A stretch of 37,568 nt of DNA, from the IMG/VR virus record IMGVR_UViG_3300048998_000085, positions 1 to 37,568 of that record. The stretch is one strand, 5' to 3'. A model generated the notes under the pieces. It was not told the origin of the DNA. It was given only the letters and a program-made list of their open reading frames with translations, and ran no database searches. The position numbers and the translations under genes are program-made. Below are positions 2,687 through 37,386 of this stretch, piece by piece (the stretch's first letter is position 1; each line of letters opens with the position of its first letter). This stretch comes from a virus (lineage: Duplodnaviria; Caudoviricetes).

Positions 2687-3015
2687 AGCACGCCCTCGCT
2701 AGCGAATAAATCGTCGCGCACGATAGCGACGTCGCCGAGGATCATGTGCGTTGTGCCCGGCACGCAATTGCGCCAATAAAGGGCCGTTGCATCATCGTTC
2801 GGGGGCAGGCCTTTTCGGTGGCCGATATCGTCGACGATCATCACAAGCAACGGCTCGCCCAAGTGACGCAAAAGCACGGTGCAGCACGTGGCGGCGTTGA
2901 TCCGCTCGGCGAGGGCTTGGATATTCGGGCGCACCTTGACGTCGATTGGCTCGCTCGACTGGTCGGTGCGGATGATGCGATTTTCGACGGCCGCGCGATT
3001 GTCGGGGTTTAGCAT
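2683..3015 (-). CDS. DUF3846-like phage protein
   Basis: MIVDD.G...LP.N..AT.LY...I.GD.AI pattern; start moved to ATG 3015, which overlaps the upstream gene end. Confidence 0.65.
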   Translation of the reverse strand: MLNPDNRAAVENRIIRTDQSSEPIDVKVRPNIQALAERINAATCCTVLLRHLGEPLLVMIVDDIGHRKGLPPNDDATALYWRNCVPGTTHMILGDVAIVRDDLFASEGVL

Positions 3016-3206
3016 TGGCGGATCTCCTCGCGCAGCGCATGACAAGCGACCTCCCCGAGCATTTCGTTTGCGGCCGCTAGGGCGGCATGCTTGGCGGTTT
3101 GGCACATGGCCACCAGGCTAAGCGCGCCGGCGGCTCGAGCGGCTTGCTCGGCGTGGTTTGCGGCTTGCGCACATTTCAGCAAGTGCGCCAGATTCTTATG
3201 GTTCAT
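3009..3206 (-). CDS. hypothetical protein, first gene of the leftward operon
   Basis: AAGGA RBS upstream; downstream of a clear promoter. Confidence 0.7.
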   Translation of the reverse strand: MNHKNLAHLLKCAQAANHAEQAARAAGALSLVAMCQTAKHAALAAANEMLGEVACHALREEIRQC

Positions 3207-3238
3207 TGTTCGGTTTCCTTGTTATTCAACGCCCGCCG

Positions 3239-3267
3239 AATATAGCACTCGCGCAACTACGCAGCAA
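3239..3267 (-). promoter_or_regulatory. sigma70-like leftward early promoter
   Basis: Minus strand TTGCTG-N17-TATATT with an extended -10 TG. Confidence 0.7.
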
Positions 3268-3380
3268 ACGACCGACCATCGGGTTATGTGCACAAAGTTA
3301 CGCACGCGCTTAACGCTTTCGTCTATGATTCGTCACGTGCGCACCTAAGCGCGCGCGAAACCTAACCCGAGCAGCTGCAA

Positions 3381-3653
3381 ATGAACCAACAAACGCACCA
3401 TACCGAGCGCCTTGCTAAAGCGGCCGCGGCCATCAAAAGCCCCGGCATTTCCCACATCGAAGTGCTCGACGCCAAAAACCGCGAAGAATTCAAAGCCGGG
3501 CAGCTGCTTCGCGTGGTCCGCGAAACGCCGGCCTTTTATCACGTGCTCTCTCACGGTGGCGTCGAGTGGCGCGTAAGCAAAAAGACGAAGCGGCTTATCG
3601 GGACGCTTTGCTCTTTCGTGCGCACCAGCGCGCAACCGACGACGAACCTCTGA
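3381..3653 (+). CDS. hypothetical protein
   Basis: First rightward ORF after the divergent intergenic region; globular-looking sequence. Confidence 0.65.
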   Translation: MNQQTHHTERLAKAAAAIKSPGISHIEVLDAKNREEFKAGQLLRVVRETPAFYHVLSHGGVEWRVSKKTKRLIGTLCSFVRTSAQPTTNL

Positions 3654-10705: not shown

Positions 10706-10982
10706 GGTTGTCCGGGCTTTCCGGATAACGGGCCTGCAGCTGGCCACCGCCGACACGTCGGAGACGCTCGGGACCGACGAGGTTTTATTGTTGCCCGAGC
10801 GCGTAATCGTTACCTCGGATTGGATCAAAACCCGCGCGCACGACCGCCCGTGCGACGGGTATTTCGTCCAGTACGAGGACGGCTACACCAGCTGGTCGCC
10901 GGCGGCCGCATTCGAGTCGGGTTACTCCGAACTCGTCCACGAACCCGCAGCAGCACCGAAGGCGGCAAACGATGGCCAGTGA
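10683..10982 (+). CDS. conserved phage protein (YxCHKxVxA...GYxVxYxDGYxSWSP family)
   Basis: MKSYRCHKVVRAF...GYFVQYEDGYTSWSPAAAFESGY; AAGGGA RBS before ATG 10683. Confidence 0.8.
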   Translation: MKSYRCHKVVRAFRITGLQLATADTSETLGTDEVLLLPERVIVTSDWIKTRAHDRPCDGYFVQYEDGYTSWSPAAAFESGYSELVHEPAAAPKAANDGQ

Positions 10983-11292
10983 GGAAATCGCGACGCTAGT
11001 GCGCCCGCTTGGCAATCGCTTAGCGGTGCGCCCGGATGTCGCCTTGCCGGAGACGGATATCTTTATTCCGACCGGCTCGGGCATCGTTTGGGATTCGCAG
11101 CGCCATCTAGGCCGGCGGGGCGTGGTTGTCGCCGCCGGGCCCGGGGTTTATAACGCTAAGGGCGTTTTTTCCCCGACGGCCGTACCCGTGGGCGCCGTGA
11201 TTCGATACGGGGAATTCGAGTATCCAACGATCGAGGGCCTCTCGATCATCAGCGAGGCCGACGTTATCGGCATAGAGGAGTTAGCAAATTGA
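10972..11292 (+). CDS. groES: GroES/Cpn10-like co-chaperonin
   Basis: VRPLGNRLAV, GVVVAAGPG, VPVG..I.YG, IISEADVIGI. Confidence 0.88.
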   Translation: MASEEIATLVRPLGNRLAVRPDVALPETDIFIPTGSGIVWDSQRHLGRRGVVVAAGPGVYNAKGVFSPTAVPVGAVIRYGEFEYPTIEGLSIISEADVIGIEELAN

Positions 11293-13516: not shown

Positions 13517-15814
13517 ATGGCCACCTCTGACCTCGCAACGCCGCCCCACCGCCTCACGCCCGACAAGCGCGCCTCGAAGGGCGCCGACGCAAAAATCATC
13601 GCCGAGGCGCGGGCATTCTTTGATGAGGTTGAGGCGGCCGAATCAGCCGACCGCGACCAGGCGCGCAAAGATATCAAGTTTTCCTATGGCGAGCAGTGGC
13701 CCGATGCGGTTTACAACGACCGCCAAACCGAGGACCGCCCCGCCCTCACGTTGAACAAGCTTGGCGCGTTTATCCGCTATATCTGCAACCAGCAGCGCCA
13801 GCAGCGCCCGCGCCTGAAAGTCTCGCCATGTGGCGACGGCGCGCAGAAGAAAACCGCCGATATCATTCAAGGCCTCTTACGGCACATCGAAGTGCAAAGC
13901 CACGCCGAATCGGCTTATGACATTGCATTCGAGTATGCGGTGCGCGGTGGCTTAGGTTATGTGCGCGTGCTCTCCGACTATGAGCCGAACAGTTTCAATC
14001 AGTGCCTCACGGTGGAGTCGATCCCCAACCCGTTTAGCGTGCGATTCGACCCGCACTCGATATTGCCCGACGGGCGCGACGCGATGGCGTGCATTATCTC
14101 GAGCAATATCTCTAAAACGCAATTCAGAAGCGATTACCCCGGATTCGATCCTGATTCGTGGGTAACAGACGGCGCCGACACCGGGGCGGGTTGGGTTGAA
14201 GAATCGACCGTGCGCGTGGCCGAGTATTACGTTATCCGCGGCAAAAAGCAGCAGCTATGCCTCCTCTCGAACGGCCTCCCGAAGTGGAGTGACGAGATCT
14301 CGCCGATAGTGCTTAAGGCTTCGGGCCTAAAGGTTGTCGGGCAGCGCATGGCGGTGCGCCGTCAGCTGCACTGGTACAAGCTCACCGCCGGCGCCATCCT
14401 CGAGCACTTGGAATTGCCGGGCCGATATATCCCGGTGGTGCCCGTGGTCGGCAATGAGCTTTATGTCGAAAACAAGCGACATCGTTATGGCGTGGTCAAG
14501 GATGCCCGTGACCCGCAATTGATGCTCAACTACTGGCGCTCGGCGGAAACCGAGCACGTGGCCCTCGGACCTAAGAATAAATGGCTGATGGTCGCCGGGC
14601 AGGACGAGGGCTTAGAGGGCGAGTGGGCCAACGCCAACCGCTCGAGCAACGCGGTATTGCATTACAAATCGGTGCTCGATAAGGCCGGCAATCCGGCGCC
14701 CGCCCCGCAACGCTCGCAGCCCGAGGCGGTGCCGCCCGGCATCGTCGAGCTCGCCAACCAGGCGGACACCGACCTAACGTCAGTGCTCGGCGTGATTGAC
14801 CCGAGCCAACGCATCGGCGGCAATCAGTCGGGCAAGTCGCTAGCCGGCGAGCGCCTGCAAAGCCAAACGTCGACGTTTAACTTTATCGACAACCTCTCGC
14901 GCTCAATCATGCACGTGGGGCGAATCCTGCTGGACCTAATACCGCACTACTACAGCGAAGCCCGCGTCATCCGGATTATCGGCGGCGACGGCAAGCCGCA
15001 ACAGGTCAAGCTGAATCAGCCCGTCGACGCGCAGGGCAACCCGCTCGAGGTTATCTACACCGGGGCGGGTGAATTCGTGACCTCGGCCGACGTCGACCAT
15101 GTGCTAAACGACGTGACAACGGGCTTGTATGAGATCGATCTCGACACCGGGCCCGGCCTGGACACGAAACGCGAGCAGGCGGTCGAGCAGATGACGCCGC
15201 TATTCGCCGCCGACCCGGTGCTGCGCGAAAAGGCGGGGGATATCTGGTTCCGGAATATGGACTTCCCCGGGGCCGACGCCATCGCCGACCGGCTCGCCGC
15301 GGGGAATCCGCTAGCCAACCTCGAGGAAATGGCCGACGTGCCGCCGGCGGTGGTGGCCAAAATGCAGGCCTTGCAGCAGCAATTGCAACAGGCGCAGGAG
15401 CAGATTAAGCAGCAGGAGCAGATCCTCAAATCCCGAATGGACGTCGAGGGCATGCGTCAGGCCGGCGCCGTGCACCGCGAGGAGATCAAAGCTCACGCCT
15501 CGATGCTCTCCGACAAGCTTTGGAGTCGCGAGGAGCAAAACCAAGTCGATAGCGTCGAGCGCACGAAAATGTTTGATATCGCGACGCGAGCTCAGACCGC
15601 GCATGGGGTGCAGGAACTTAAATCCTTTACCGACGTTTTGCTCGACAACAACAAAACCCCGGCCGAGCGTGCCACCGAGGCCGCCGCGGTTGATGGCTTT
15701 GCAGACGAAACGCAGGCCGAGGCCATGCAAGCGGCCCCGCAACCTGAAACCCCGCCCCCGCTTTCCGCTTGGCGCGACGAGGACGAGGACCAGGCCGAGG
15801 AGCTCCCGCAATAA
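13517..15814 (+). CDS. portal protein (P22-like)
   Basis: GEQW...RPALTLNKL, GGLGYVRV, IPVVPVVG, DARDPQLMLNYW.S; C-terminal Q-rich coiled-coil barrel. Confidence 0.95.
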   Translation: MATSDLATPPHRLTPDKRASKGADAKIIAEARAFFDEVEAAESADRDQARKDIKFSYGEQWPDAVYNDRQTEDRPALTLNKLGAFIRYICNQQRQQRPRLKVSPCGDGAQKKTADIIQGLLRHIEVQSHAESAYDIAFEYAVRGGLGYVRVLSDYEPNSFNQCLTVESIPNPFSVRFDPHSILPDGRDAMACIISSNISKTQFRSDYPGFDPDSWVTDGADTGAGWVEESTVRVAEYYVIRGKKQQLCLLSNGLPKWSDEISPIVLKASGLKVVGQRMAVRRQLHWYKLTAGAILEHLELPGRYIPVVPVVGNELYVENKRHRYGVVKDARDPQLMLNYWRSAETEHVALGPKNKWLMVAGQDEGLEGEWANANRSSNAVLHYKSVLDKAGNPAPAPQRSQPEAVPPGIVELANQADTDLTSVLGVIDPSQRIGGNQSGKSLAGERLQSQTSTFNFIDNLSRSIMHVGRILLDLIPHYYSEARVIRIIGGDGKPQQVKLNQPVDAQGNPLEVIYTGAGEFVTSADVDHVLNDVTTGLYEIDLDTGPGLDTKREQAVEQMTPLFAADPVLREKAGDIWFRNMDFPGADAIADRLAAGNPLANLEEMADVPPAVVAKMQALQQQLQQAQEQIKQQEQILKSRMDVEGMRQAGAVHREEIKAHASMLSDKLWSREEQNQVDSVERTKMFDIATRAQTAHGVQELKSFTDVLLDNNKTPAERATEAAAVDGFADETQAEAMQAAPQPETPPPLSAWRDEDEDQAEELPQ

Positions 15815-16110
15815 TGGCGACGCACACGAATATCGAAACAGCCGAGTCGATCGAGCTCACCGTATTGCGGCGGTTTTTCGAACAATGGAATGCGTTGCAC
15901 GCGATGGCTCGAGGCGGCACGCCGGCCGAAATAGCGGCGCAACGAACCACGCTGCAGCATTTCGCGCAACGTCTGTCGGATGCCGCGACCGACGTGCGAA
16001 TCGCTCAACAGGCGCGAAAAGAGGCGATAAGGGATGCCGAGCGCGCTCAATCCCCCTTTATCCCACCGCCGCGCATTTTGCCGCTCGATCCGCCCGAAGC
16101 GACCGATTAA
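15814..16110 (+). CDS. hypothetical helical protein
   Basis: TAATG coupling to the portal gene; GAGGAG upstream. Confidence 0.65.
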   Translation: MATHTNIETAESIELTVLRRFFEQWNALHAMARGGTPAEIAAQRTTLQHFAQRLSDAATDVRIAQQARKEAIRDAERAQSPFIPPPRILPLDPPEATD

Positions 16111-16223: not shown

Positions 16224-17168
16224 TTGGCCAGTGAGCAGCAGACTAGCGACGTGGTGGTCGTTACAAGTAATGACGTGGCGGAATTCACCGCACGCGCGGC
16301 GGGCTTAGCCCCCGCGTTGCCGGCTATTGAGGCGGACGACCCCGGGCACCAGGGATCGGACGAGCCGAACGGCAACACGGGCGAGAGTGAGCACGACGAT
16401 GCGGCGGCTAATGGCGCTACGAGTCTCGACGATGCCAGCAATGACGGCAACGCCAAGCAGCCACGCCTGCAGGCGCGTTTTGGAGAATTGACTCAACAGC
16501 GAAACCAGATGCGCGAGGAGCGCGACCGGCTAGCTCGAGAGCTCGAGGAACTGAAACGCGGCCAGCAGGCGGCCCCGGTGCAGCAGGCGCAACCGAAGGA
16601 AACCGACCAGGCGCAAGCCGAGGGCACGGATCCGGCGGGGGCACCAGCTGCGCCGGCGGCGGGCAACCCCGACGACCTACCGCAGCAACCCGCTAATGAC
16701 GCTGAGCCCGATCCCGCCGACGTGGTGCGGAAATGGCACATGCGGCTCGGCGTGCAGCTGCTCGCTACGCCCGACTTCGATGATGTTATGGCGGCGGCGG
16801 CTGATGTTCAGATTCCGCAAAGCATGACGAATGCCATCATGGAATCGGAGCAGGGCCCGGCGATTGCTTACCATCTTGCGCAAAACAAGGATCTCGCCAA
16901 GCGTTTGGCGGGCTCGCGCGAGTCGGTAATGCTTAGGGAATTGGGCAAGCTCGAGGCGACGCTATCCGCGCAAGCGGACGGCAGCACGGCGGCACCAGCT
17001 GCGCGAGCATCGGCGAGTGTGACGCAGCGACGCGCACCGCCCCCGCCCCCGATTTCCCCCATTCGCTCGGCCCGCTCAGACCCTCTCGACGCTCTAATCG
17101 ACGAAAACGGAGAGTTTCACGGCACGCCCGAGGAATATCAGGAACTAAGGCGAAAAGGGAAAATCTAG
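16224..17168 (+). CDS. scaffolding protein
   Basis: Lies between portal and coat; RF.ELT.QR coiled coil, AIMESEQGPAIAYHLAQN, RELGKLEA, PPPPISP, C-terminal Y...RRKGKI. Confidence 0.88.
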   Translation: MASEQQTSDVVVVTSNDVAEFTARAAGLAPALPAIEADDPGHQGSDEPNGNTGESEHDDAAANGATSLDDASNDGNAKQPRLQARFGELTQQRNQMREERDRLARELEELKRGQQAAPVQQAQPKETDQAQAEGTDPAGAPAAPAAGNPDDLPQQPANDAEPDPADVVRKWHMRLGVQLLATPDFDDVMAAAADVQIPQSMTNAIMESEQGPAIAYHLAQNKDLAKRLAGSRESVMLRELGKLEATLSAQADGSTAAPAARASASVTQRRAPPPPPISPIRSARSDPLDALIDENGEFHGTPEEYQELRRKGKI

Positions 17169-17226: not shown

Positions 17227-18591
17227 ATGAAAAAAGCTCTCCGCAAACCTCTCGCCGCCCGCTTGGCGGGTCTGTTCGCCCCCGCTCACGACGCTCTGCT
17301 GGGTTTCATGCAGCGCGCCGGCCTGGTGCTCGGCGTGAACAACGTTTTAACAATCTCGAAGATCACCAACGAGGCGCTGATGCTCCTCGAAAACGAGCTT
17401 GTTATCGCCAACGCCGTCACGCGCGAATACGATGCGCAATTCGCCGTGGTGGGCGCGAAAATCGGCTACACGTGTAACGTTCGCAAACCCGCTCGCTTTA
17501 TCGGCACCACGGGCCCGGCGCTCAACGTCGAGGACTTTAACGAGTCGTTCGCCCCGGTTTCGCTCACCACGCAATTCCACGTCGATACGCAATTCACGAC
17601 CGCCGACCTAACGCTGTCGATGGACGAATTCGCCGCGCGCTTTATCAAGCCCGCTATTGCGACGATCGCCAACCGCGTCGATCTGGACGGCGCATTCCAG
17701 CTGCGCAACCAAACGGCTAATACCGTCGGCGTGCCTGGTTCCCCGCCCGTGGGTACTAATCCCTGGATGCTGGCCAACGCCTACGTGACCGCCGAGGGCG
17801 CGCCGGCAATGTCCGACCGATTTACCATCGTTGAGCCGTTTACCTCGGCCAGCGTGGCGGATTCGATCAAGGGCCTATTCGTGCCGACCCCGCAGATCGA
17901 CAACGCCTATAAGCGCGCGGCCGTGCTCGGGCGCGACAATATGGGCTCGACGTGGGCGCTCGATCAAAACATCATCAGCCACACATTCGGCAACTGGACG
18001 ACGACCGCGGGTGCCATCACCATAAGCGGCGCCAACCAGGGCAACGCCTCGGGCGTGCCGCCGACGACAACCACGCTCAACCTGACAACCACGCAGGGCC
18101 TCACGCTGCAGCAGGGCGACGTATTCCAAATCGCGGGCGTCTATGGCGTCAACCCGCAATCGCGTCGCGCTTATGGCTCGAATCGTTTGCGCTCATTCGT
18201 TGTGCAGTCGGCCGTCACGACCGGCTCGGGCGCCTTTTCGGTGGTGGTTTCTCCAGCACTGATATACGGTGGCCAATTCCAGAATGTGAGCAACGTTCCC
18301 GCCAACGGTGCCGCAGTCACGCCGCTCTCGATCGCAGTCGGCGCGGCTAACGCCGTGGTTTCCCCGCAAAACGTCACGATTCACAAAACCGCGGCCGCGC
18401 TGGCAATGGCGGATCTGATCGTGCCCGAGGGCGTGCATTTTGCCGGCCGTGCCGCGTCGAAAAAATCCGGTATCTCTATCCGGATCGTTCGCGCTTACAC
18501 GATCAACAACGACTCGATCCCGACTCGGTGCGATGTTATCTACGGATACGCACCGCTTTATTCCGAGCTCGGTTGCCGCATCGCGGCCTGA
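17227..18591 (+). CDS. major capsid protein (P22 coat family) with a 36-aa N-terminal extension
   Basis: NNVLTISKITNEAL.LLENEL, KIGYT.NVRKP, GDVF.IAGV..VNP, RCDVIYG; AGGTG RBS before ATG 17227; residue 37 is a GTG codon (17335), a possible alternative start. Confidence 0.95.
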   Translation: MKKALRKPLAARLAGLFAPAHDALLGFMQRAGLVLGVNNVLTISKITNEALMLLENELVIANAVTREYDAQFAVVGAKIGYTCNVRKPARFIGTTGPALNVEDFNESFAPVSLTTQFHVDTQFTTADLTLSMDEFAARFIKPAIATIANRVDLDGAFQLRNQTANTVGVPGSPPVGTNPWMLANAYVTAEGAPAMSDRFTIVEPFTSASVADSIKGLFVPTPQIDNAYKRAAVLGRDNMGSTWALDQNIISHTFGNWTTTAGAITISGANQGNASGVPPTTTTLNLTTTQGLTLQQGDVFQIAGVYGVNPQSRRAYGSNRLRSFVVQSAVTTGSGAFSVVVSPALIYGGQFQNVSNVPANGAAVTPLSIAVGAANAVVSPQNVTIHKTAAALAMADLIVPEGVHFAGRAASKKSGISIRIVRAYTINNDSIPTRCDVIYGYAPLYSELGCRIAA

Positions 18592-18668
18592 CCGATCGTT
18601 AGAAGCAAAGCAGGGGGCGAGCTCTCGGGTTCGCCTCCCATTGGCTCTCACCTATTAGGAATTCAAAC

Positions 18669-19151
18669 GTGAAAAGCTTCAAAAAGTCGGCATTTGCCGC
18701 GGCCTTAATCGGCCTGTTCGCTCCGCTCGAGCGCCTGTTAACGCGTTATCAGCAACGCGCGGGCTTGATCCTGCAGGCCAACCCGGGCCCGGCGACGACC
18801 AATTCGTTTAGCCCGCAAATGTCGACCGGCAATGTCTCGAAAAACTGGTCGTTTCCGCTGAGCCTCACGCCGGCATCGGTGGCGGCCGCGACGGTTGCCG
18901 CGCAGACCTTTTCGGCGACCGGCTTAGGCCTGCAGGTTGGCGATATCGTGCAAGTCGCTTTCCAGGGCGCGCAAACCGCGGGCGTTTCGGTATCCGACGC
19001 TTATGTGTCGGCGGCCGACGCCATCACGATTCGATTCGTGAACGCGACCGCGGGCGCCGTGGTGCCTGCAGCTGGCACCTATCAGGTTTCGGGCATGCGT
19101 CCGATTACCTCGTCGCAACAATCGCTGAGCTCGCCGGCTATCAGCTGGTAA
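18669..19151 (+). CDS. putative capsid decoration/cement protein 1 with a 36-aa leader
   Basis: Follows the coat gene; AGGA RBS; beta-rich small domain LTPASVAA...QTF..GL.VGD.V.V. Confidence 0.75.
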   Translation: MKSFKKSAFAAALIGLFAPLERLLTRYQQRAGLILQANPGPATTNSFSPQMSTGNVSKNWSFPLSLTPASVAAATVAAQTFSATGLGLQVGDIVQVAFQGAQTAGVSVSDAYVSAADAITIRFVNATAGAVVPAAGTYQVSGMRPITSSQQSLSSPAISW

Positions 19152-19164
19152 GCACGCCCTCGAG

Positions 19165-19192
19165 CCCGCGCCAATCGATCGGCGCGGGTTTT
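19165..19192 (+). terminator. Rho-independent terminator after coat and decoration 1
   Basis: cccgcgcc-aatcgatc-ggcgcggg-tttt. Confidence 0.75.
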
Positions 19193-19218: not shown

Positions 19219-19539
19219 ATGCCAGCTAATGACGTAGGCCGCGGCAATATTCTCTATGACGCGATTGTTACGCTTGCGCTAACGCCGGTTGCTGTCGCCG
19301 CGAATACCTCGGCCGAGCAATCTTTCGCACTAAAGGGCATACAGGTCGGCGATCACGTCGACGTCAATTGCCTAAGCGCGCAGACGAACGGAATCGGCAT
19401 TGTGAATTGCCGCGTTTCGGCGCCCGACACGCTGACCGTGCAATTCTCTAACAGCACGGCCGGATCTCTGAGCCCGGCGACCGCCAGCTATCTGGTCAAC
19501 GTGAACCGGGCAGTAACGCCGGCGAGTAACTTCTTATGA
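19219..19539 (+). CDS. putative decoration protein 2 (leaderless paralog of 18669-19151)
   Basis: AGGAGG RBS; aligns with decoration 1 (GN...L.LTP..VAA.T...Q.F...G.QVGD.V.V....AQT.G.....VSA.D.....F.N.TAG...PA...Y.V...R). Confidence 0.8.
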   Translation: MPANDVGRGNILYDAIVTLALTPVAVAANTSAEQSFALKGIQVGDHVDVNCLSAQTNGIGIVNCRVSAPDTLTVQFSNSTAGSLSPATASYLVNVNRAVTPASNFL

Positions 19540-22057: not shown

Positions 22058-23670
22058 TGCCTGACTTCGGATTCGTGGGCGACGCCTACGCCGCACCAGC
22101 TGCGCAGCAAGACGCGCAGGAGCTCATTAACTGGTACCCCGAAGTCGACCCCCGAAAGGGCGAGGGATCTCGCGGCGCGGTGGCCCTCTATCCGACACCA
22201 GGCACGCGCCGGTGCATCAATATGCAAACCGCCGGATTGAACGCGGGCGGGTTGGGGCCCGTGCGCGCGCTTTTCGCATTGCCTGGTGCGTCGACCTTTG
22301 CGGCCGCCTCGGTGGCGCTGGCCACCGTGCCGAATTCAACGCCGGCCGTGCTCGCCGTGATTGGCAACACGGTATGGATTTTGTTTACGCCGTTGCTCGA
22401 CGCGCCTCTCGTCAACGGTTACGTGTTGGCGGGCGTCAAGCTCGCCACGACGACGGGCCCGTGCACCATCACGTCGAACGGCCTGCAAGCGATGATTACC
22501 GATGGGGTAAACCGCTACGCGTGCGACTTTAACGGCTCGCCGCTCACGCTCACATTGCTAACCGACGGCGCATGGGCAGGCGGGGTGCGGTGCGATATCG
22601 TCGACAACATAATGATTTACAACAAGCCCAACTCTAAGCAGTGGGGCGCAACCAATGCACTTAGCACCGTTTCGGCCGCGTTATCTTTCGCCTCGACGTT
22701 TGCCAGCTATGACAATTTGCAATGCGTATTCACCGACCAGGGCCAAGTGGCGGCCATTGGCACGCAGACAACGGAATTTTGGTCTAACGCCGGCCTGTTT
22801 CCTTTTCCGTTTGCTCGGATCCCCGGCACCATTCGCCAATTCGGCACCGCGGCACCTTACTCGGTTGCGCGCTTCGGTCGCGGCTTTGCGATGCTCGGGC
22901 AATCGCAGCTGGGGCAAGCAATCGTCTTTCATGTGCAGAACTACGAATTTAAGCGGATCAGCACGCACGCAATCGAGCAGGATCTTATCGGGCAGACCAT
23001 TAGCGACGCTTTCGGGTTTGCGTATCAGCTAGAGGGCCATGAATTTTATGTGCTCAATTTCCCGACCGCCAATCGCACGTGGGTCTATGACCTCAATACG
23101 GGCATGTGGCACAAGCGAGAGAGCTATCAGCCCTATAACCCGCTCGACGTCGAGACGAAAATCGGCCGGTGGATTGTCAATTGCACGTGCGTTGTAAACG
23201 GGCAGGTGCTCGCCGGCGGGTACGACGGCAATATCTACACCCTCGACAACTCGCTCGGTTATGAGGAGATCGCTTATTACGGATTGGTGGTGCAGCAAGT
23301 GGTCCGCCGCGTGCGTCGGGCGCCGCACATTACCGCCGACTTTAAGCGAATCACTTACGAGGATCTGCAGATACAGTTTCAGCAGGGCACCGGCGCCGCG
23401 GTCGACCCGGCATTTAACAGCGTTGCGGGCGGCACCGTGACCGTCGGCGCCACCGACCCGCAGGCCATGCTTAGATGGTCCGACGATGGCGGTATGACGT
23501 GGGGAAATGTGCATCCTCGATCACTCGGCAAGATCGGGAAATATAAGGCGCGCACGCGCTGGACGCGGCTAGGTACGGCGCGCGATCGCGTATTCGAGCT
23601 CACGTGCACCGACCCGGTTTATAACGTCGTCATAAGCGCGGATCTGCGCGCCACCGTGCAGGGCCGCTAA
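22057..23670 (+). CDS. tail hub / packaged-DNA stabilisation protein (P22 gp10-like)
   Basis: INWYPE...LYPTPG, TTEFW.NAG, RISTHAIE, GHEFYVLNFP...TWVYD...WH, LRWSDDGG.TW, RLG.ARDRVFE. Confidence 0.92.
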   Translation: MPDFGFVGDAYAAPAAQQDAQELINWYPEVDPRKGEGSRGAVALYPTPGTRRCINMQTAGLNAGGLGPVRALFALPGASTFAAASVALATVPNSTPAVLAVIGNTVWILFTPLLDAPLVNGYVLAGVKLATTTGPCTITSNGLQAMITDGVNRYACDFNGSPLTLTLLTDGAWAGGVRCDIVDNIMIYNKPNSKQWGATNALSTVSAALSFASTFASYDNLQCVFTDQGQVAAIGTQTTEFWSNAGLFPFPFARIPGTIRQFGTAAPYSVARFGRGFAMLGQSQLGQAIVFHVQNYEFKRISTHAIEQDLIGQTISDAFGFAYQLEGHEFYVLNFPTANRTWVYDLNTGMWHKRESYQPYNPLDVETKIGRWIVNCTCVVNGQVLAGGYDGNIYTLDNSLGYEEIAYYGLVVQQVVRRVRRAPHITADFKRITYEDLQIQFQQGTGAAVDPAFNSVAGGTVTVGATDPQAMLRWSDDGGMTWGNVHPRSLGKIGKYKARTRWTRLGTARDRVFELTCTDPVYNVVISADLRATVQGR

Positions 23671-24617
23671 TGGCGACGCCTCAGATCCCCTATTCGCCTC
23701 TCGTCGATACCCTCCGCAATATCGCGCAGGAGTGGCGCAAGTGGTTGCTGCAAGTCGCCGATACCGCCTACAGCGCCGCGGCGACGTGGGTAGTTAATGG
23801 CGCAACCGTCACGGTGCTGTCGGGCGTCAACCGAATTCAGGCCGACTTTTCCTCAGCCGTCGCGGGTTTTCAGAGCAGCGTGACGAACGGGCAGACGGTG
23901 GTCGATGCGATACCCAACGGCACCAGCATTCAGGCCGGTTTCCGGGCCTGGAATAGCAACGCGGTAACGAATTCGAGCTTTGGCCATTTCGTCATCAATA
24001 ACACCGGCCTCTATATCGAGTCGGGCAAGGTTGGTGCCGGTGGTTACGTCCCGATGATTTTTTACGCCGGGGGCAATTCGCGGTTGCTGCTAAACGCGGC
24101 GGCGGGTTTCCAGATCTCGAGCTACGCGACCGACTGGAATGTGATTCTGAAATCGGCCAACCAGGCCGGCACCTTTTATCACATGAATCTGTCTGAGCCC
24201 GGCGGGGTTTCCTACGGAACCATTTATTCGGTTGGGGGCACGACGACCTACGCGACGACCTCGGATCGGCGCAAAAAACGAAACATCGAGGACGCCGCGC
24301 CGGCGCTGGCCAGCCTCTCGCGTTACCGCGTGGTGCAACACGATTGGAACGACTTTCCCGACGTGCATGTCGATTATTCATTCGTCGCGCAGGAGCTCGC
24401 CGACGTTGCCCCGATCGCGGTTGCGAAAGGCGGCCCCGGCGATGCACTGGTCGACGATGGATCCGGGGAATTCGTGCCCGACGGTTGCGTTTCGTGGGGC
24501 GTCGACCCCTCTAAGCTGGTGCCCTATCTTTTCAAGGTATGTCAGGAGCAACAGCTGCAGATCGAGGCGCTGCAGGCGTCGGTAAACTCGCTGGCGTCGA
24601 AACCCTCATCAGCGTGA
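23670..24617 (+). CDS. tail needle-position/fibre protein with a C-terminal peptidase S74 chaperone
   Basis: gp26 locus; TSDRRKKRNI (Ser at 24261), FVAQEL, LVPYL...QEQQ.QI..L. Confidence 0.8.
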   Translation: MATPQIPYSPLVDTLRNIAQEWRKWLLQVADTAYSAAATWVVNGATVTVLSGVNRIQADFSSAVAGFQSSVTNGQTVVDAIPNGTSIQAGFRAWNSNAVTNSSFGHFVINNTGLYIESGKVGAGGYVPMIFYAGGNSRLLLNAAAGFQISSYATDWNVILKSANQAGTFYHMNLSEPGGVSYGTIYSVGGTTTYATTSDRRKKRNIEDAAPALASLSRYRVVQHDWNDFPDVHVDYSFVAQELADVAPIAVAKGGPGDALVDDGSGEFVPDGCVSWGVDPSKLVPYLFKVCQEQQLQIEALQASVNSLASKPSSA

Positions 24618-24621
24618 CCTA

Positions 24622-25230
24622 ATGAAAAACTTTCTGCGCATCGCCACCGGGCAAAACATCGGGCAGCTAATGCTCGCTATTCATCGTCAGCCCGATCTAT
24701 GGCATGCGGACACCTACTTGCGCGACTTCCCGCAGGGCCCTTTCGAGGACGTCGACTCGATCCTGTTGCGGTTTCCCCCGCATCGGGTATTCGAGCTACA
24801 GGCCGACGCCGAAAAGTATCTCTCCACCATCGATCAGCACGAATCGGTCGACCAGGCCGCCTATGCTCGATTGCCCGAGGCGCGCTCGCATGTAATGGGG
24901 CTTATGAGTTTCGCCGGCGGCGAGCGGTTAGGGCGCGTGATGATTAACCGGATTCGGCCGGGCGGTCGGATCTTCCCGCACGCCGATACGGCCGCGCACG
25001 TGAGCTATTACACGCGCTTTCACCTATGCCTGCAGTCGGATCCGGGCTACGTGTTTCGGTGCGGCGACGAATCGGTTTTTATGGCGGCGGGCGAGATCTG
25101 GCGCTTCGATAACTCGCTCGAGCATGAAGTCGTGAACAACGGCAAGGACGACCGAATCTCGATGGTTGTCGACATTCGGACCATGCGGCCACCGGCGCCC
25201 GCGCCTGTTCAGCAGGGCACCCTCCAATGA
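24622..25230 (+). CDS. aspartyl/asparaginyl beta-hydroxylase-family 2OG-Fe(II) oxygenase
   Basis: GRVMI..I.PGG.IFPHAD, RFHL.L, GEIW.FDNSLEHEVVN...DRI..VVD (HxD...H triad). Confidence 0.92.
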   Translation: MKNFLRIATGQNIGQLMLAIHRQPDLWHADTYLRDFPQGPFEDVDSILLRFPPHRVFELQADAEKYLSTIDQHESVDQAAYARLPEARSHVMGLMSFAGGERLGRVMINRIRPGGRIFPHADTAAHVSYYTRFHLCLQSDPGYVFRCGDESVFMAAGEIWRFDNSLEHEVVNNGKDDRISMVVDIRTMRPPAPAPVQQGTLQ

Positions 25231-25694
25231 TTACGTACCACGTCGAGGAATATTCGGACGTTATCGACGAGCTCCGACCGCTTCTCGTGCGTCATTACGA
25301 GGAGCTTAGCGAGCACCGCGAGCACGGCATCGCGCTCGAGCCGCAGGATCTCGCCTACCGTCAGCGCGAGGCCGACGGATCTCTAACCATGTTTATCGCG
25401 CGCGAGCAGGGCGAAATCGTCGCCTACATGGTCACTTTCGTTTGCCCGGCTTTGCACTATCAATCGTGCTTATCGGCGCTCCCGGATATTTTCTACGTGT
25501 TACCCGAGCGTCGGCGCTCCGCCATCGGCTCGGAACTTTTCGACTTTGCCGAAAAGGCGCTAAGGCGCCGGGGCGTGCGCGCTTGGATTGTCGGCGGCAA
25601 AGTAAAACATCCTGTTGAGGCGCTTTTCGCGCACCAGCAATTCAGCCCGTTTGAATCCTTATGGATCAAGTGGCTCGAGCCTAATAAGGAGTAA
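25227..25694 (+). CDS. GNAT-family acetyltransferase (P22 gp14 position)
   Basis: DIFYVLPERRRSAIGSELF..AE..LRRRGV acetyl-CoA motif A. Confidence 0.85.
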   Translation: MITYHVEEYSDVIDELRPLLVRHYEELSEHREHGIALEPQDLAYRQREADGSLTMFIAREQGEIVAYMVTFVCPALHYQSCLSALPDIFYVLPERRRSAIGSELFDFAEKALRRRGVRAWIVGGKVKHPVEALFAHQQFSPFESLWIKWLEPNKE

Positions 25695-25699
25695 TCGAT

Positions 25700-27031
25700 A
25701 TGGTGGCGGCAGCAGTAGGAATTGCGGCGGTCGGTGCGGCTTCGTCTATGTATGCCGCCAACCAGCAGGCGGACGCCGCGGAAAACGCGGCTAATTTGCA
25801 ATCGCAGACCGCGCAGAATTCGGCGCAGTTGCAGCAGCAGGCCGCGGGCGTGGCATCGGGCAACCTCGGCCAAGCCGCGGGCGTGGCGGGGGCGCAGCTG
25901 CAGGCGGGCTATCAACCGTCAATGGATCTGATACAGACCGGCGCGCAGCAGGTCGCGAATCAGCAGAATCAGGCGCTCTCGACCATTGGCTCGCAATACG
26001 CGCCTTATACCGGGCTCGGTGCCAGTGCGGCCGGCCAGCTGCAGGCGGGCGTTAATGACGGCTCGCTGACCCGCGGTTTCACGACGGCGGATCTCGACGC
26101 GAATCTCTCGCCCGCTTATGCGTTTCAACTCGAGCAGGGCTTAGGCCAAGCGGGCGCGCAATTGAATGCCGCCGGCGGCCTGGTGAGCGGCAATGCGATG
26201 CAGGGCCTAAACACGTTTGCGCAAAACTACGCGCAGACCGCGTTTCAGCAGGCATATAACAATTACAACCAGAACCAGGCAAACGCCTTTACGCGACTGT
26301 CGACGCTGGCCAACCAGGGGCAGACGGCCGCCGGCGCCGTGGGTAGTGCCGCGCAAACGGCCGCCGGCGCGATCGGTGGCGCGCAACAGGCCGCCTCTAG
26401 TTCGCAAGCGGCTCTCACTAGCGGTCTGAGCTCGAATCTGGCCAACCTCGCCACGGGCACCGCGCAGACACAAGGCAACTACCTAACCGGCGGCGCGGGT
26501 GGTGCGGCTAACGCGCTCACCGCGGGCGCGCAAAACGCGGGCTTATACGCAACCCAAGCGGCCGCCGCTCAAGCCGCGGGCGTGGTCGGTGCGAGCAACG
26601 CCGCGCAATCCGGCATGAATAACTACATGGGGTGGAATTACCTCAACAGTGCGGGCAAGTCGGGCTCGAGCTCGAGCGCACTTGCTGAGGACGCCGCGGG
26701 ATCCGACGCGCGCATTAAATCCGGCATGGGCGAGCCCGAAAGCGCGCTCGATCGGTTGATGCAGATTCGGGTGGTGCAACACGATTGGAAAGACAACGCG
26801 GGCGCCTATGCGCAGCGCGCCGGGCAAATCGGACACGTCGACTTTTCATTCGTGGCGCAACAGCTGGCCGAGATCATGCCCGGGGCGGTGGTACCAGGCG
26901 ACAAGGGCGAAACGCCGCGCACGGTTTGGACCGTGGCCCCGTACCAGATCATCGCCGCGCTGGTTAAGGGCCTGCAGGAGCAGCAAGCGCAGATTGTCGA
27001 CTTGCGAGATCAATTGTTAGGAGGCCGCTAA
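25700..27031 (+). CDS. ejection/DNA-transfer protein (gp7-like) fused to a C-terminal peptidase S74 domain
   Basis: A/G/Q-rich, PY...G..A, SPAYAFQLEQG...GGLVSGNAMQGL..FAQNYA; GSDARIK (Ser at 26702), FVAQQL, LVKGLQEQ; TAAGGAG RBS. Confidence 0.85.
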   Translation: MVAAAVGIAAVGAASSMYAANQQADAAENAANLQSQTAQNSAQLQQQAAGVASGNLGQAAGVAGAQLQAGYQPSMDLIQTGAQQVANQQNQALSTIGSQYAPYTGLGASAAGQLQAGVNDGSLTRGFTTADLDANLSPAYAFQLEQGLGQAGAQLNAAGGLVSGNAMQGLNTFAQNYAQTAFQQAYNNYNQNQANAFTRLSTLANQGQTAAGAVGSAAQTAAGAIGGAQQAASSSQAALTSGLSSNLANLATGTAQTQGNYLTGGAGGAANALTAGAQNAGLYATQAAAAQAAGVVGASNAAQSGMNNYMGWNYLNSAGKSGSSSSALAEDAAGSDARIKSGMGEPESALDRLMQIRVVQHDWKDNAGAYAQRAGQIGHVDFSFVAQQLAEIMPGAVVPGDKGETPRTVWTVAPYQIIAALVKGLQEQQAQIVDLRDQLLGGR

Positions 27032-35061: not shown

Positions 35062-35222
35062 TTTCTCCCCGCCGCCAGGATGCGCAAGGCCGCGTCGTCT
35101 TTCGCCATTGCCACGCCGATCATTAGCAGCCGATCAGATGAGCCGGGTTTTAGTTTTGCAGCCTTGGCGTGCAGCTGTTTAGACTCGGCGCGCAATTGCT
35201 TTGCAAGCTCGGCATTGGTCAT
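35058..35222 (-). CDS. small basic hypothetical protein
   Basis: ATGA-coupled start at 35222 (MTNAEL). Confidence 0.6.
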   Translation of the reverse strand: MTNAELAKQLRAESKQLHAKAAKLKPGSSDRLLMIGVAMAKDDAALRILAAGRK

Positions 35223-35842
35223 AGCCCTCTCGCCCGTTTGAATTGAGCCCATGCAGCATTTACCTCGGCCATAGCCGCATCGGTGCCGCCCTTATCGGGA
35301 TGGCATGCACTGCGCGCGAATCGGTACGCCTCGCGCACGTGCTCGGTTTCGGCGTTGGCGGGCACCTTAAACACGTGATGCCACGGCCGCCCCGCCGGCG
35401 CGGGTAGGGCGGCAAAGCCGGTAAAAACGCGGTCGAGGATCTCGGCCGAGCCGTGCCGTTTGATTGCCCGCATGGCGTCTAACGTGTTGCCGATGGCGGC
35501 CAGATTGTCGGCGATGCGGTCATAAGTATCTATCGCGATGACACGCGAGCCGTGCACGGTTTGCCAGTAGACCGCGACGCCGACATCGCCGGGCTCGGAC
35601 GATGCCGCATCGATTCGCCCGTTAAGCCTTAGCTTTCGATTCGTGCTGATGACGATATCGTCTCGGCTGATTCCCGGGTGCATGCGCTCGAGCTCGAGCA
35701 CCACGCGGTCGACCGCATCCGGTATGCCGATGCGCCGGCCTTGCCTGGAAAAATTCCCCGACTTGCGAAAGCCGTGAGACGTGCGTTTCCAACCGTCCGG
35801 CCACGTCAGCGGATAGGCGCTGATTTTCTCGGGATCGATCAT
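35219..35842 (-). CDS. phage J-domain (DnaJ-like) protein
   Basis: AYPL.WP.GWKRT N-terminus, GVAVYW...AID.Y..IADNL.AI, C-terminal W..VF...AYR....HPDKGG...M.EVN.AW. Confidence 0.9.
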   Translation of the reverse strand: MIDPEKISAYPLTWPDGWKRTSHGFRKSGNFSRQGRRIGIPDAVDRVVLELERMHPGISRDDIVISTNRKLRLNGRIDAASSEPGDVGVAVYWQTVHGSRVIAIDTYDRIADNLAAIGNTLDAMRAIKRHGSAEILDRVFTGFAALPAPAGRPWHHVFKVPANAETEHVREAYRFARSACHPDKGGTDAAMAEVNAAWAQFKRARGL

Positions 35843-36521: not shown

Positions 36522-37072
36522 TAGTCGATTTCCCCGTCGCTATCGCCCACGCCCGCATCGCCGGTATTGTTCGCGCCTAATTCCAGCTGCGCGGCATCGC
36601 CCTTGCGAATCGATATCGAAATATCTTCGTCGAGCCACAACGTCGCTAAGGAGGCGCACTCCACCACGTCGAGCGGGCATTTCGCCTTGAACTCGAGCGG
36701 CGGGGATCCGCCGGGCGTGACGTCCAGGCCGAAGCTATCGAGTTTCACCTTATACAGATCTAAGTCGGCATCGCCCGAGGCGCCCCAGTGCAGGGTTATT
36801 TCGGCGTCTTTCACCAGCAGATCGAGCGGGACGTGCTTGATATATTCCGAGCGCGGCATCGCCGGTTGCGAGCCGTCGATCGTTTTTTGCATGCCGATAA
36901 CGTCGGTGCGATACAGACCGGCACGCACTTGCGGATCGATCAGATCGAGAATCGCGCTACTGTCAATCATCTTGAATGACAACGTGCCAGCGAGTGCCCA
37001 TTTGTCGCCGTGGCGCTCGCGCCTTAGCGCCACATTCGTAAGCTTTACGGCCTTTCGATCGAGCGCGAGCAT
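36521..37072 (-). CDS. conserved phage hypothetical protein
   Basis: TGATG coupling to the acb2 stop; KLTNV..R.E.HG pattern; acidic tail. Confidence 0.7.
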   Translation of the reverse strand: MLALDRKAVKLTNVALRRERHGDKWALAGTLSFKMIDSSAILDLIDPQVRAGLYRTDVIGMQKTIDGSQPAMPRSEYIKHVPLDLLVKDAEITLHWGASGDADLDLYKVKLDSFGLDVTPGGSPPLEFKAKCPLDVVECASLATLWLDEDISISIRKGDAAQLELGANNTGDAGVGDSDGEID

Positions 37073-37386
37073 CAAAAGCTCCCCGGTTGAGCAACCGCAC
37101 GCACTAGGGCCATTAGCGCGGTTTGCATATCTGTTTTGGCCATTGCCGCCCACCGCTCGGGCTCGGCCTGGTGCAATCTAAACGTCTCGTCATCCTTAAC
37201 CTGCAGATCCGACGGGCCATCGTTTGCGGCGGGCGTGCAAGCATGCCGTTGCTGCGCAATGTGTCCGCGCACTCTCGAGAGAGTGGTTGCGAATTGCGAG
37301 CCGAGCGCCTTGATCTCATTCATTAGATCGATCTCCTCGGCCGAGAGCTCGCGATATCCGGATATCTTCCGGTGCTGATTTTCCAT
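37072..37386 (-). CDS. acb2: anti-CBASS protein Acb2 (cyclic oligonucleotide sponge)
   Basis: MENQHRKISGYRELSAEEIDLMNEIK.LG...AEPERW.AMAKTDMQTALMALVRAVAQP.SF matches the Acb2/T4 Vs.4 family; AAGGT RBS. Confidence 0.92.
   Translation of the reverse strand: MENQHRKISGYRELSAEEIDLMNEIKALGSQFATTLSRVRGHIAQQRHACTPAANDGPSDLQVKDDETFRLHQAEPERWAAMAKTDMQTALMALVRAVAQPGSF

Follow-up and report, generated by a model that had tools for sequence, protein, structure and literature searches.

A portable, optional N-terminal leader on virion proteins of uncultured phages, some of them betaproteobacterial prophages, likely a propeptide for a host protease

The stretch of DNA that we analyzed (the window; 37,568 nucleotides, IMG/VR record IMGVR_UViG_3300048998_000085) comes from an uncultured soil phage; the virus record is complete, at 37.6 kb, and has direct terminal repeats. 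One soil-metagenome contig, which is possibly the record's own source, spans the stretch unchanged; no RNA run is listed. The head module is P22-like: terminase, portal (PF16510), scaffold (phrog_8865; 16224..17168, + strand), and coat (PF11651) follow in this order, and 3' of the coat are two small paralogous beta-proteins and then a podophage tail module. The mature-length coat (17335..18591, +) belongs to phrog_283, and the gene product matches PF11651 from residue 39 with 114 bits (the curated cut-off is 24) and E = 8e-33. The first of the small beta-proteins is encoded by the gene that starts at 18669; its mature-length part (18777..19151, +) is a small jelly-roll beta-sandwich. The second (19219..19539, +) is a paralog of this domain (40% identical), and the pair is conserved in IMG/VR relatives.

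The product of gene 18669 had originally been described as decoration-like. Its best structural matches are the C-terminal domains of trimeric tailspikes (Z of 7.1 or below), Foldseek found no match for the model in PDB at E = 0.001, and the 24 matches in BFVD are mostly uncharacterised proteins and tail spikes. With these matches, the description is plausible, and the protein is putatively a capsid decoration or a trimeric capsid spike. Strong GC-rich hairpins follow both the coat (18613-18638) and gene 18669 (about 19162-19191) on the + strand, at roughly -22 kcal/mol per 50-nt stretch. These are likely terminators or RNA-processing sites.

Elsewhere, the window encodes a GroES-like co-chaperonin (10972-11292, +; Cpn10, E = 6.5e-5) and a protein with a weak C-terminal match to the J-domain (35219-35842, -; E = 2e-4). 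The tail/ejection module includes an Asp/Asn beta-hydroxylase-like gene and a GNAT acetyltransferase gene (24622-25694, +), which are possibly a pair for modifying virion proteins. S74 intramolecular chaperone domains end two proteins (23670-24617 and 25700-27031, +), one of which is ejection-like (phrog_598). Near the end of the window is an Acb2/Tad1 hairpin-domain gene (37072-37386, -; PF24729, E = 4e-17), a candidate anti-defence nucleotide sponge.

Both the coat and gene 18669 have 36 residues ahead of these domains. The coat leader (17227..17334, +) has a basic start, a predicted helix to about residue 30, and then G-L-V-L-G; it is also present on the coat homolog P0056. The leader of the spike- or decoration-like protein (18669..18776, +) is also present on the homolog P0002. 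As the original prediction had it, the two leaders are alike and the domains behind them are unrelated. The leaders align without gaps and are identical at 17/36 positions, with a BLOSUM62 local score of 75 (20,000 shuffles averaged 20 and did not exceed 48). Their DNA is identical at 51/108 nucleotides: 16, 22, and 13 of 36 at the three codon positions, with the second the highest. For the downstream domains, BLASTP gives only a 13-residue match (E = 0.012), and the folds differ (P22 coat versus jelly-roll). A six-frame search of the window found no third copy, and both the scaffold and the 19219 paralog lack the leader. AlphaFold models of both proteins have a helix to residue 30-31 and then coil, at low confidence (the coat model, with a pLDDT of 57, was kept out of the fold search).

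Over 30-36 residues, each of the window's leaders is among the best matches to the other (rank 1-3 of 68), and they have L-F-x-P in common. Because of this motif and the mutual ranking, the sequences suggest that one leader was copied locally from the other gene. As for leaders co-evolving within a phage in general, six same-genome pairs were no more alike than permuted pairs (p = 0.17).

The leader appears to have been added in front of an ancestral start codon. Of the 53 homologs of gene 18669 other than itself, P0002 alone extends over the leader, with 94% of the query covered; coverage in the rest is at most 78%. Similarly, a search with coat residues 1-60 found a single leader-bearing homolog, P0056. 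We aligned relatives from 56 IMG/VR loci and counted only those with a visible N-terminus: at the position of residue 36, Met is present in 53/53 relatives of gene 18669 and in 44/44 relatives of the coat. This agrees with the expectation that homologs begin at residue 37, and the same register recurs in a second capsid subfamily, a scaffold family, and a tail-tube family. Because the relatives have Met at residue 36, removal of 36 residues would give the same N-terminus that the relatives have after removal of Met.

Starting from these leaders, we assembled a family of 69 distinct leaders with the core H-x-x-L-F-x-[YF]-M-x-R-x-G-[LM]-[VI]-L-x. A profile of four sequences also picked up a leader on a siphophage tail-tube gene. 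In IMG/VR, the core pattern lay near the N-terminus of a virion gene in 4/4 and 38/38 loci, which are partly redundant. The carriers include capsids (phrog_10, 283, 267, 334, 1005, 3437, and 4523/133), scaffolds (phrog_206 and 8865), and tail tubes (phrog_158 and 584), or at least 7 capsid, 2 scaffold, and 2 tail-tube families besides the window's spike-like protein; another carrier, P0058, has no PHROGs family. Thus, the same leader does occur on unrelated folds, as had been proposed for a check. We screened 30 carrier records in full, and all 37 matches were on such virion proteins, with no other class. The leader occurs once in 23/30 records and twice in 7/30 (always scaffold and capsid), and it is on one protein only in 11/12 near-complete records; the window has the sole pairing of coat and spike-like protein that we saw. 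The prevalence of single tagged proteins weakens the idea that the leader serves to co-target two head proteins.

A looser pattern matched 121 loci in metagenomes. A gap in scores (from 32 to 21 bits) separates 25 distinct strong matches, all on the same kinds of proteins, from chance matches scoring 21 bits or less. In GTDB, 4/6 matches are prophage genes (from Pararobbsia, Paraburkholderia, a Nitrosomonadales genome, and a betaproteobacterium); the other two, from Bacteroidota, are chance matches. One NCBI carrier is labelled Herbaspirillum. The named carriers are betaproteobacterial prophages. Three leader queries matched no cultured phage, the leader has no match in Pfam, NCBIfam, PHROGs, or PDB sequences, and we found no description of this motif in the open full texts that we searched. 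A stricter pattern with L-F-x-P matched 33 IMG/VR loci, and its 25 protein-level matches were the interiors of integrases and stray frames; because these are only stray matches, we regard L-F-x-P as a local sub-dialect (the window, P0002, P0056, and P0058). Searching a representative library with four leaders returned the window's protein, P0058, and two chance matches. Apparent N-terminal extensions in cultured phages of E. coli and Ralstonia were artefacts of start calls. In Ralstonia phage GP4, the capsid was traced from Ser2, and the available portion of the report does not mention cleavage (PMC9698820).

Some loci have other arrangements of note. In L107 (3907-4023) and L118 (3598-3714), the scaffold leader is stacked before a second start-like segment (Met and a Gly-rich run), like tandem leader types. 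In L098, genes that look HNH-like by eye (811-1284 and 2698-3468) flank a leader-bearing coat of the window's family, and replace the spike-like gene.

Conservation within the leader is anchored at the junction with the mature-length protein. We number residues back from the junction. The following percentages are inflated and partly circular, as a DNA pattern for the core was used to recruit most of the 69 leaders. In the helical part, H-16 (86%), L-13 (97%), F-12 (97%), Y/F-10 (93%), and M-9 (91%) are conserved; nearer the junction, so are R-7 (97%), G-5 (100%), L/M-4 (97%), V/I-3 (97%), and L-2 (96%). Residue -1 is more variable: G in 43/69, C in 8/69, and otherwise T, F, S, A, Q, R, H, or M; it is not a small residue in 9/69 leaders, including the Q in the window's gene 18669. 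Residue +1 is A in 54/69 and V in 11/69, and Met in just 1/69. With start codons guessed, leaders extend about 21-79 residues upstream of the junction (median 35). The net charge is about +4, and the leaders are hydrophobic; in 18/69, the Kyte-Doolittle mean over 19 residues is at least 1.6. In the window's coat, the 16-residue core (17287..17334, +), as defined by the profile of 69 leaders, includes H21, L24, F27, M28, R30, G32, L33, V34, L35, and G36. Four residues in the leader of gene 18669 (E21, T25, Q28, and Q36) differ from the family core, and this second leader may be decaying or relaxed.

These leaders are translated, and selection acts on the peptide, not on the RNA. In gene 18669, the start codon is GTG with an AGGA site 8 nt upstream, and the codon for residue 37 is GCC, as in the original argument for its translation; in the coat, residue 37 is encoded by GTG (17335), with no Shine-Dalgarno-like site before it. 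Across the family, the junction is followed by GCN in 40/49 leaders with DNA, so the leader must be translated. Identity by codon position is 0.64, 0.73, and 0.51 (57 leaders with DNA), and the RNA fold z-score is -0.7 (40 leaders).

To see how the leader is distributed within one capsid subfamily, we considered 80 loci that were recruited by capsid homology and not by the leader pattern. Typical leaders are present in 16 of these and divergent leaders in 5, while 59 have none; in the leaderless capsids, the likely start codon is at the junction or within 4 residues of it. The presence of the leader differs between capsids that are 97.2, 93.0, and 88.6% identical, and the ribosome-binding region is swapped along with it. 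A single cluster at 90% identity has 4 members with the leader, 7 that start with Met-Ala, and 1 with an internal start. When we placed 70 distinct full-length capsids on a quick tree, at least 6 changes were needed, or 11 if divergent leaders are included. Where the start of the scaffold gene could be seen, the scaffold had a leader in 3/6 loci with a typical capsid leader versus 0/19 loci without one. Because the leader comes and goes between capsids that are up to 97% identical, we regard it as a cassette that is optional, unlike an ordinary structural arm. The five divergent leaders (on the L329, L359, L366, L370, and L384 capsids) were found without any pattern. They are hydrophobic and end at the same junction, and their cores differ, with only Gly and hydrophobic residues near the junction being kept. 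They are possibly host-specific dialects.

We also searched for an enzyme that might process the leader. The 16 carrier genomes (the window plus 15 records, of which three are incomplete) have no gene in common besides the tagged protein, and the next-largest cluster spans 6 genomes. A phmmer search of the window's 47 called genes against the carriers agreed, with no shared gene, and none of the 47 contains HExxH. Among the window's genes and the genes of up to 400 amino acids from records G408, G410, G411, and G419, the only Pfam matches of the peptidase class were S74 chaperone domains, an M15 lysin, and an S24 repressor. The S78 prohead protease (PF04586) was found in 0/5 carrier records (four of them complete), and Pfam scans of 60 window frames were negative too; that the window lacks a prohead protease, as originally noted, thus agrees with both searches. 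The S26 peptidase profile matched 0/5 carrier phage records. BLASTP, phmmer, and Pfam could all miss a phage protease if it were small or remote.

On the host side, Prp (PF04327) was found in 0/5 genomes, namely the window and four carrier host genomes of unstated completeness, with the window's own host not among them; as a control, the same profile matched in 3/14. L27 has no N-terminal extension and starts with M-A-x-K-K in 5/5 carrier host genomes. So the proposed analogy to Prp fails at the level of the enzyme and its template. It had also been suggested that the leader mimics a host protein, and in the genomes searched (with up to 17-21 candidates scored per genome) no host protein has the tag at its N-terminus. 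That search gave matches in 2/401 genomes (order), 2/401 (class), and 16/400 (family, E up to 0.02). The true ones were prophage capsid genes, and the rest were internal segments (of a nitrilase-like protein and of a metallo-hydrolase that we take to be glyoxalase II) or stray frames. Besides the centre genome, there was 1 true carrier in 400 genomes (order), 0 in 400 (class), and 1 in about 400 (family), so the tag is rare.

We propose that the leader is a portable, optional tag on self-assembling virion subunits, and that it is probably a propeptide which is removed by a host-encoded protease; we put the probability of this at roughly 55%. We infer removal because several independent fusions replace the ancestral Met and keep the native small residue at +1, and we infer that the enzyme is the host's since the tag is not accompanied by any one phage gene across the carriers. 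Under this proposal, the protease would cut at or next to the junction and leave the N-terminus that leaderless relatives have. The reader would bind the predicted amphipathic helix (H-16, L-13, F-12, Y/F-10, M-9, and R-7), which would stop at the invariant G-5. The [LM]-[VI]-L strand would then enter the active site, where L-2 would meet a strict, hydrophobic pocket and residue -1 a tolerant one. Cleavage would follow residue -1 or occur one residue earlier: a strict L-2 and a tolerant -1 would imply either a protease that reads two residues before the cut or a cut directly after Leu. Before cleavage, the basic and hydrophobic tag might delay polymerisation by keeping the subunit bound to the inner membrane or to a chaperone. 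This benefit is the weakest step. We favor the membrane tether or chaperone handle; the fast turnover of the leader would also be compatible with a role in masking the subunits from anti-phage sensors. Some features of the sequences count against a host-cleaved propeptide: there is no N-terminal host template in the genomes searched (unlike L27 for Prp), residue -1 is not small in 9/69 leaders, and the leader of gene 18669 departs from the core. More tentatively, Betaproteobacteria might encode a sequence-specific leader peptidase that would be the equivalent of Prp in Gram-negative bacteria. To use it, temperate and lytic phages that are unrelated to each other might attach a swappable cassette to their capsid, scaffold, tail-tube, or spike subunits as a timer, a membrane tether, or a shield from anti-phage sensors until assembly, with divergent leaders as dialects for other hosts' enzymes. 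We consider this wider scenario to be speculative.

Could the leader be kept instead, as an amphipathic arm that tethers assembly to the membrane, binds a chaperone, or is packed inside the particle? The helix predicted in both window models, the charge and hydrophobicity of the leaders, and the failure to find a protease would all suit such an arm, and mutants of Staphylococcus phage 80alpha with uncleavable capsid and scaffold are reported to be viable (PMC5744158). But a retained arm leaves the exact Met register across several unrelated folds, and the loss of the ancestral Met, unexplained, and an arm of 21-79 residues would have to suit capsid, scaffold, tail tube, and spike alike. The chaperone version could draw on the window's GroES-like and J-domain proteins, but the GroES-like gene has no match in other carrier genomes or the fetched loci. 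Overall, we think that retention is unlikely. A cut by a small, highly divergent peptidase of the phage is less likely again. There is room for one among the many small genes without Pfam matches in the window, G408, G410, G411, and G419, which include a 98-residue gene between the portal and the scaffold (15814-16110). Still, no gene is common to the 16 carrier genomes, HExxH is absent from the 47 called proteins of the window, the S78, S26, and Prp profiles were negative, and the leader switches between near-identical capsids with the ribosome-binding region only.

Another idea is that the leader acts via RNA or translation, as a better start region or an operator, with the coat also being made from GTG 17335. 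The swapping of the cassette with the ribosome-binding region fits this, as do the many-copy classes to which the tagged genes belong and the identity at four-fold sites in the core (0.50 versus 0.34 expected), but this excess can stem from close relatives in the set. With second codon positions the most conserved, synonymous codons varying, fold energies unremarkable, and most junction codons not being start codons, we view a role in RNA as very improbable. Last, the leader might be a Sec, Tat, lipoprotein, or prepilin signal that is cut by the known signal or prepilin peptidases. Signal peptides follow the (-3,-1) rule, and prepilin sites have Gly and then hydrophobic residues. The basic start and the V/I at -3 with a small -1 (60/69) fit the former, and R-x-G followed by hydrophobic residues resembles the latter. 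Against this, all 69 leaders have charged or His residues at -20 to -6 (mean 3.7), the twin-arginine motif is found in 0/69, a lipobox in 1/69, and Glu at +5 after the Gly in 0/69, and no transmembrane helix follows the Gly. Also, capsids assemble in the cytoplasm. Export is the least probable of these explanations, with hardly any chance of being correct.

If the leader is a host-cleaved propeptide, how does it compare to known systems? The delta domain of HK97 and the propeptide of T4 gp23 are also N-terminal propeptides on capsid proteins, and they are cut by phage prohead proteases. In contrast, the S78 protease is absent from the five carrier records searched, the leader is also on tail tubes, and it precedes HK97-type capsids that retain their own coiled N-terminal region (L091, L145, and L413). 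P22-family coats are assembled with a scaffold and are not known to be matured by proteolysis. The window's coat domain, portal, scaffold, and gene order are like theirs, but the extra 36-residue leader is absent from 44/44 IMG/VR relatives with a visible N-terminus and from Xanthomonas phage PBR31.

The closest parallel is 80alpha: a host protease is reported to cut its capsid and its scaffold, and the same motif is also on a major tail protein (PMC5744158). There too, one leader is on non-homologous virion proteins of a phage without a prohead protease. The same paper describes pre-cleaved and uncleavable capsids as viable, the scaffold leader as required, and the purpose as unclear; so the leader is dispensable on the capsid, much as the leader here comes and goes on capsids. 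However, Prp-cut leaders are 13-14 residues long and end in an F↓A cut, while the leaders here have a median length of 35 and a predicted helix-plus-strand. The L27/Prp motif, MLxx(D/N)LQ(F/L)F↓A(S/H)KK, which PMC9405229 gives along with its phyla, is not matched by the consensus here, H-x-x-L-F-x-[YF]-M-x-R-x-G-[LM]-[VI]-L-x↓[AV], where the cut is putative. Furthermore, the carriers here are betaproteobacterial, and in the genomes searched there is no Prp, no extended L27, and no host template. By analogy, then, the leader probably works like the Prp-cut leaders of 80alpha, and it is not a member of that system by enzyme, template, or motif. Maturation of virions by a host protease has been described for phages of Firmicutes via Prp, and the reason for it is described as still open (PMC5744158). 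The leader family would extend this pattern to phages of Gram-negative bacteria without Prp, and to the P22 coat family, which normally is not matured. The defined motif is a bait for a candidate reader, and near-identical capsids with and without the leader are natural pairs that bear directly on what it does.
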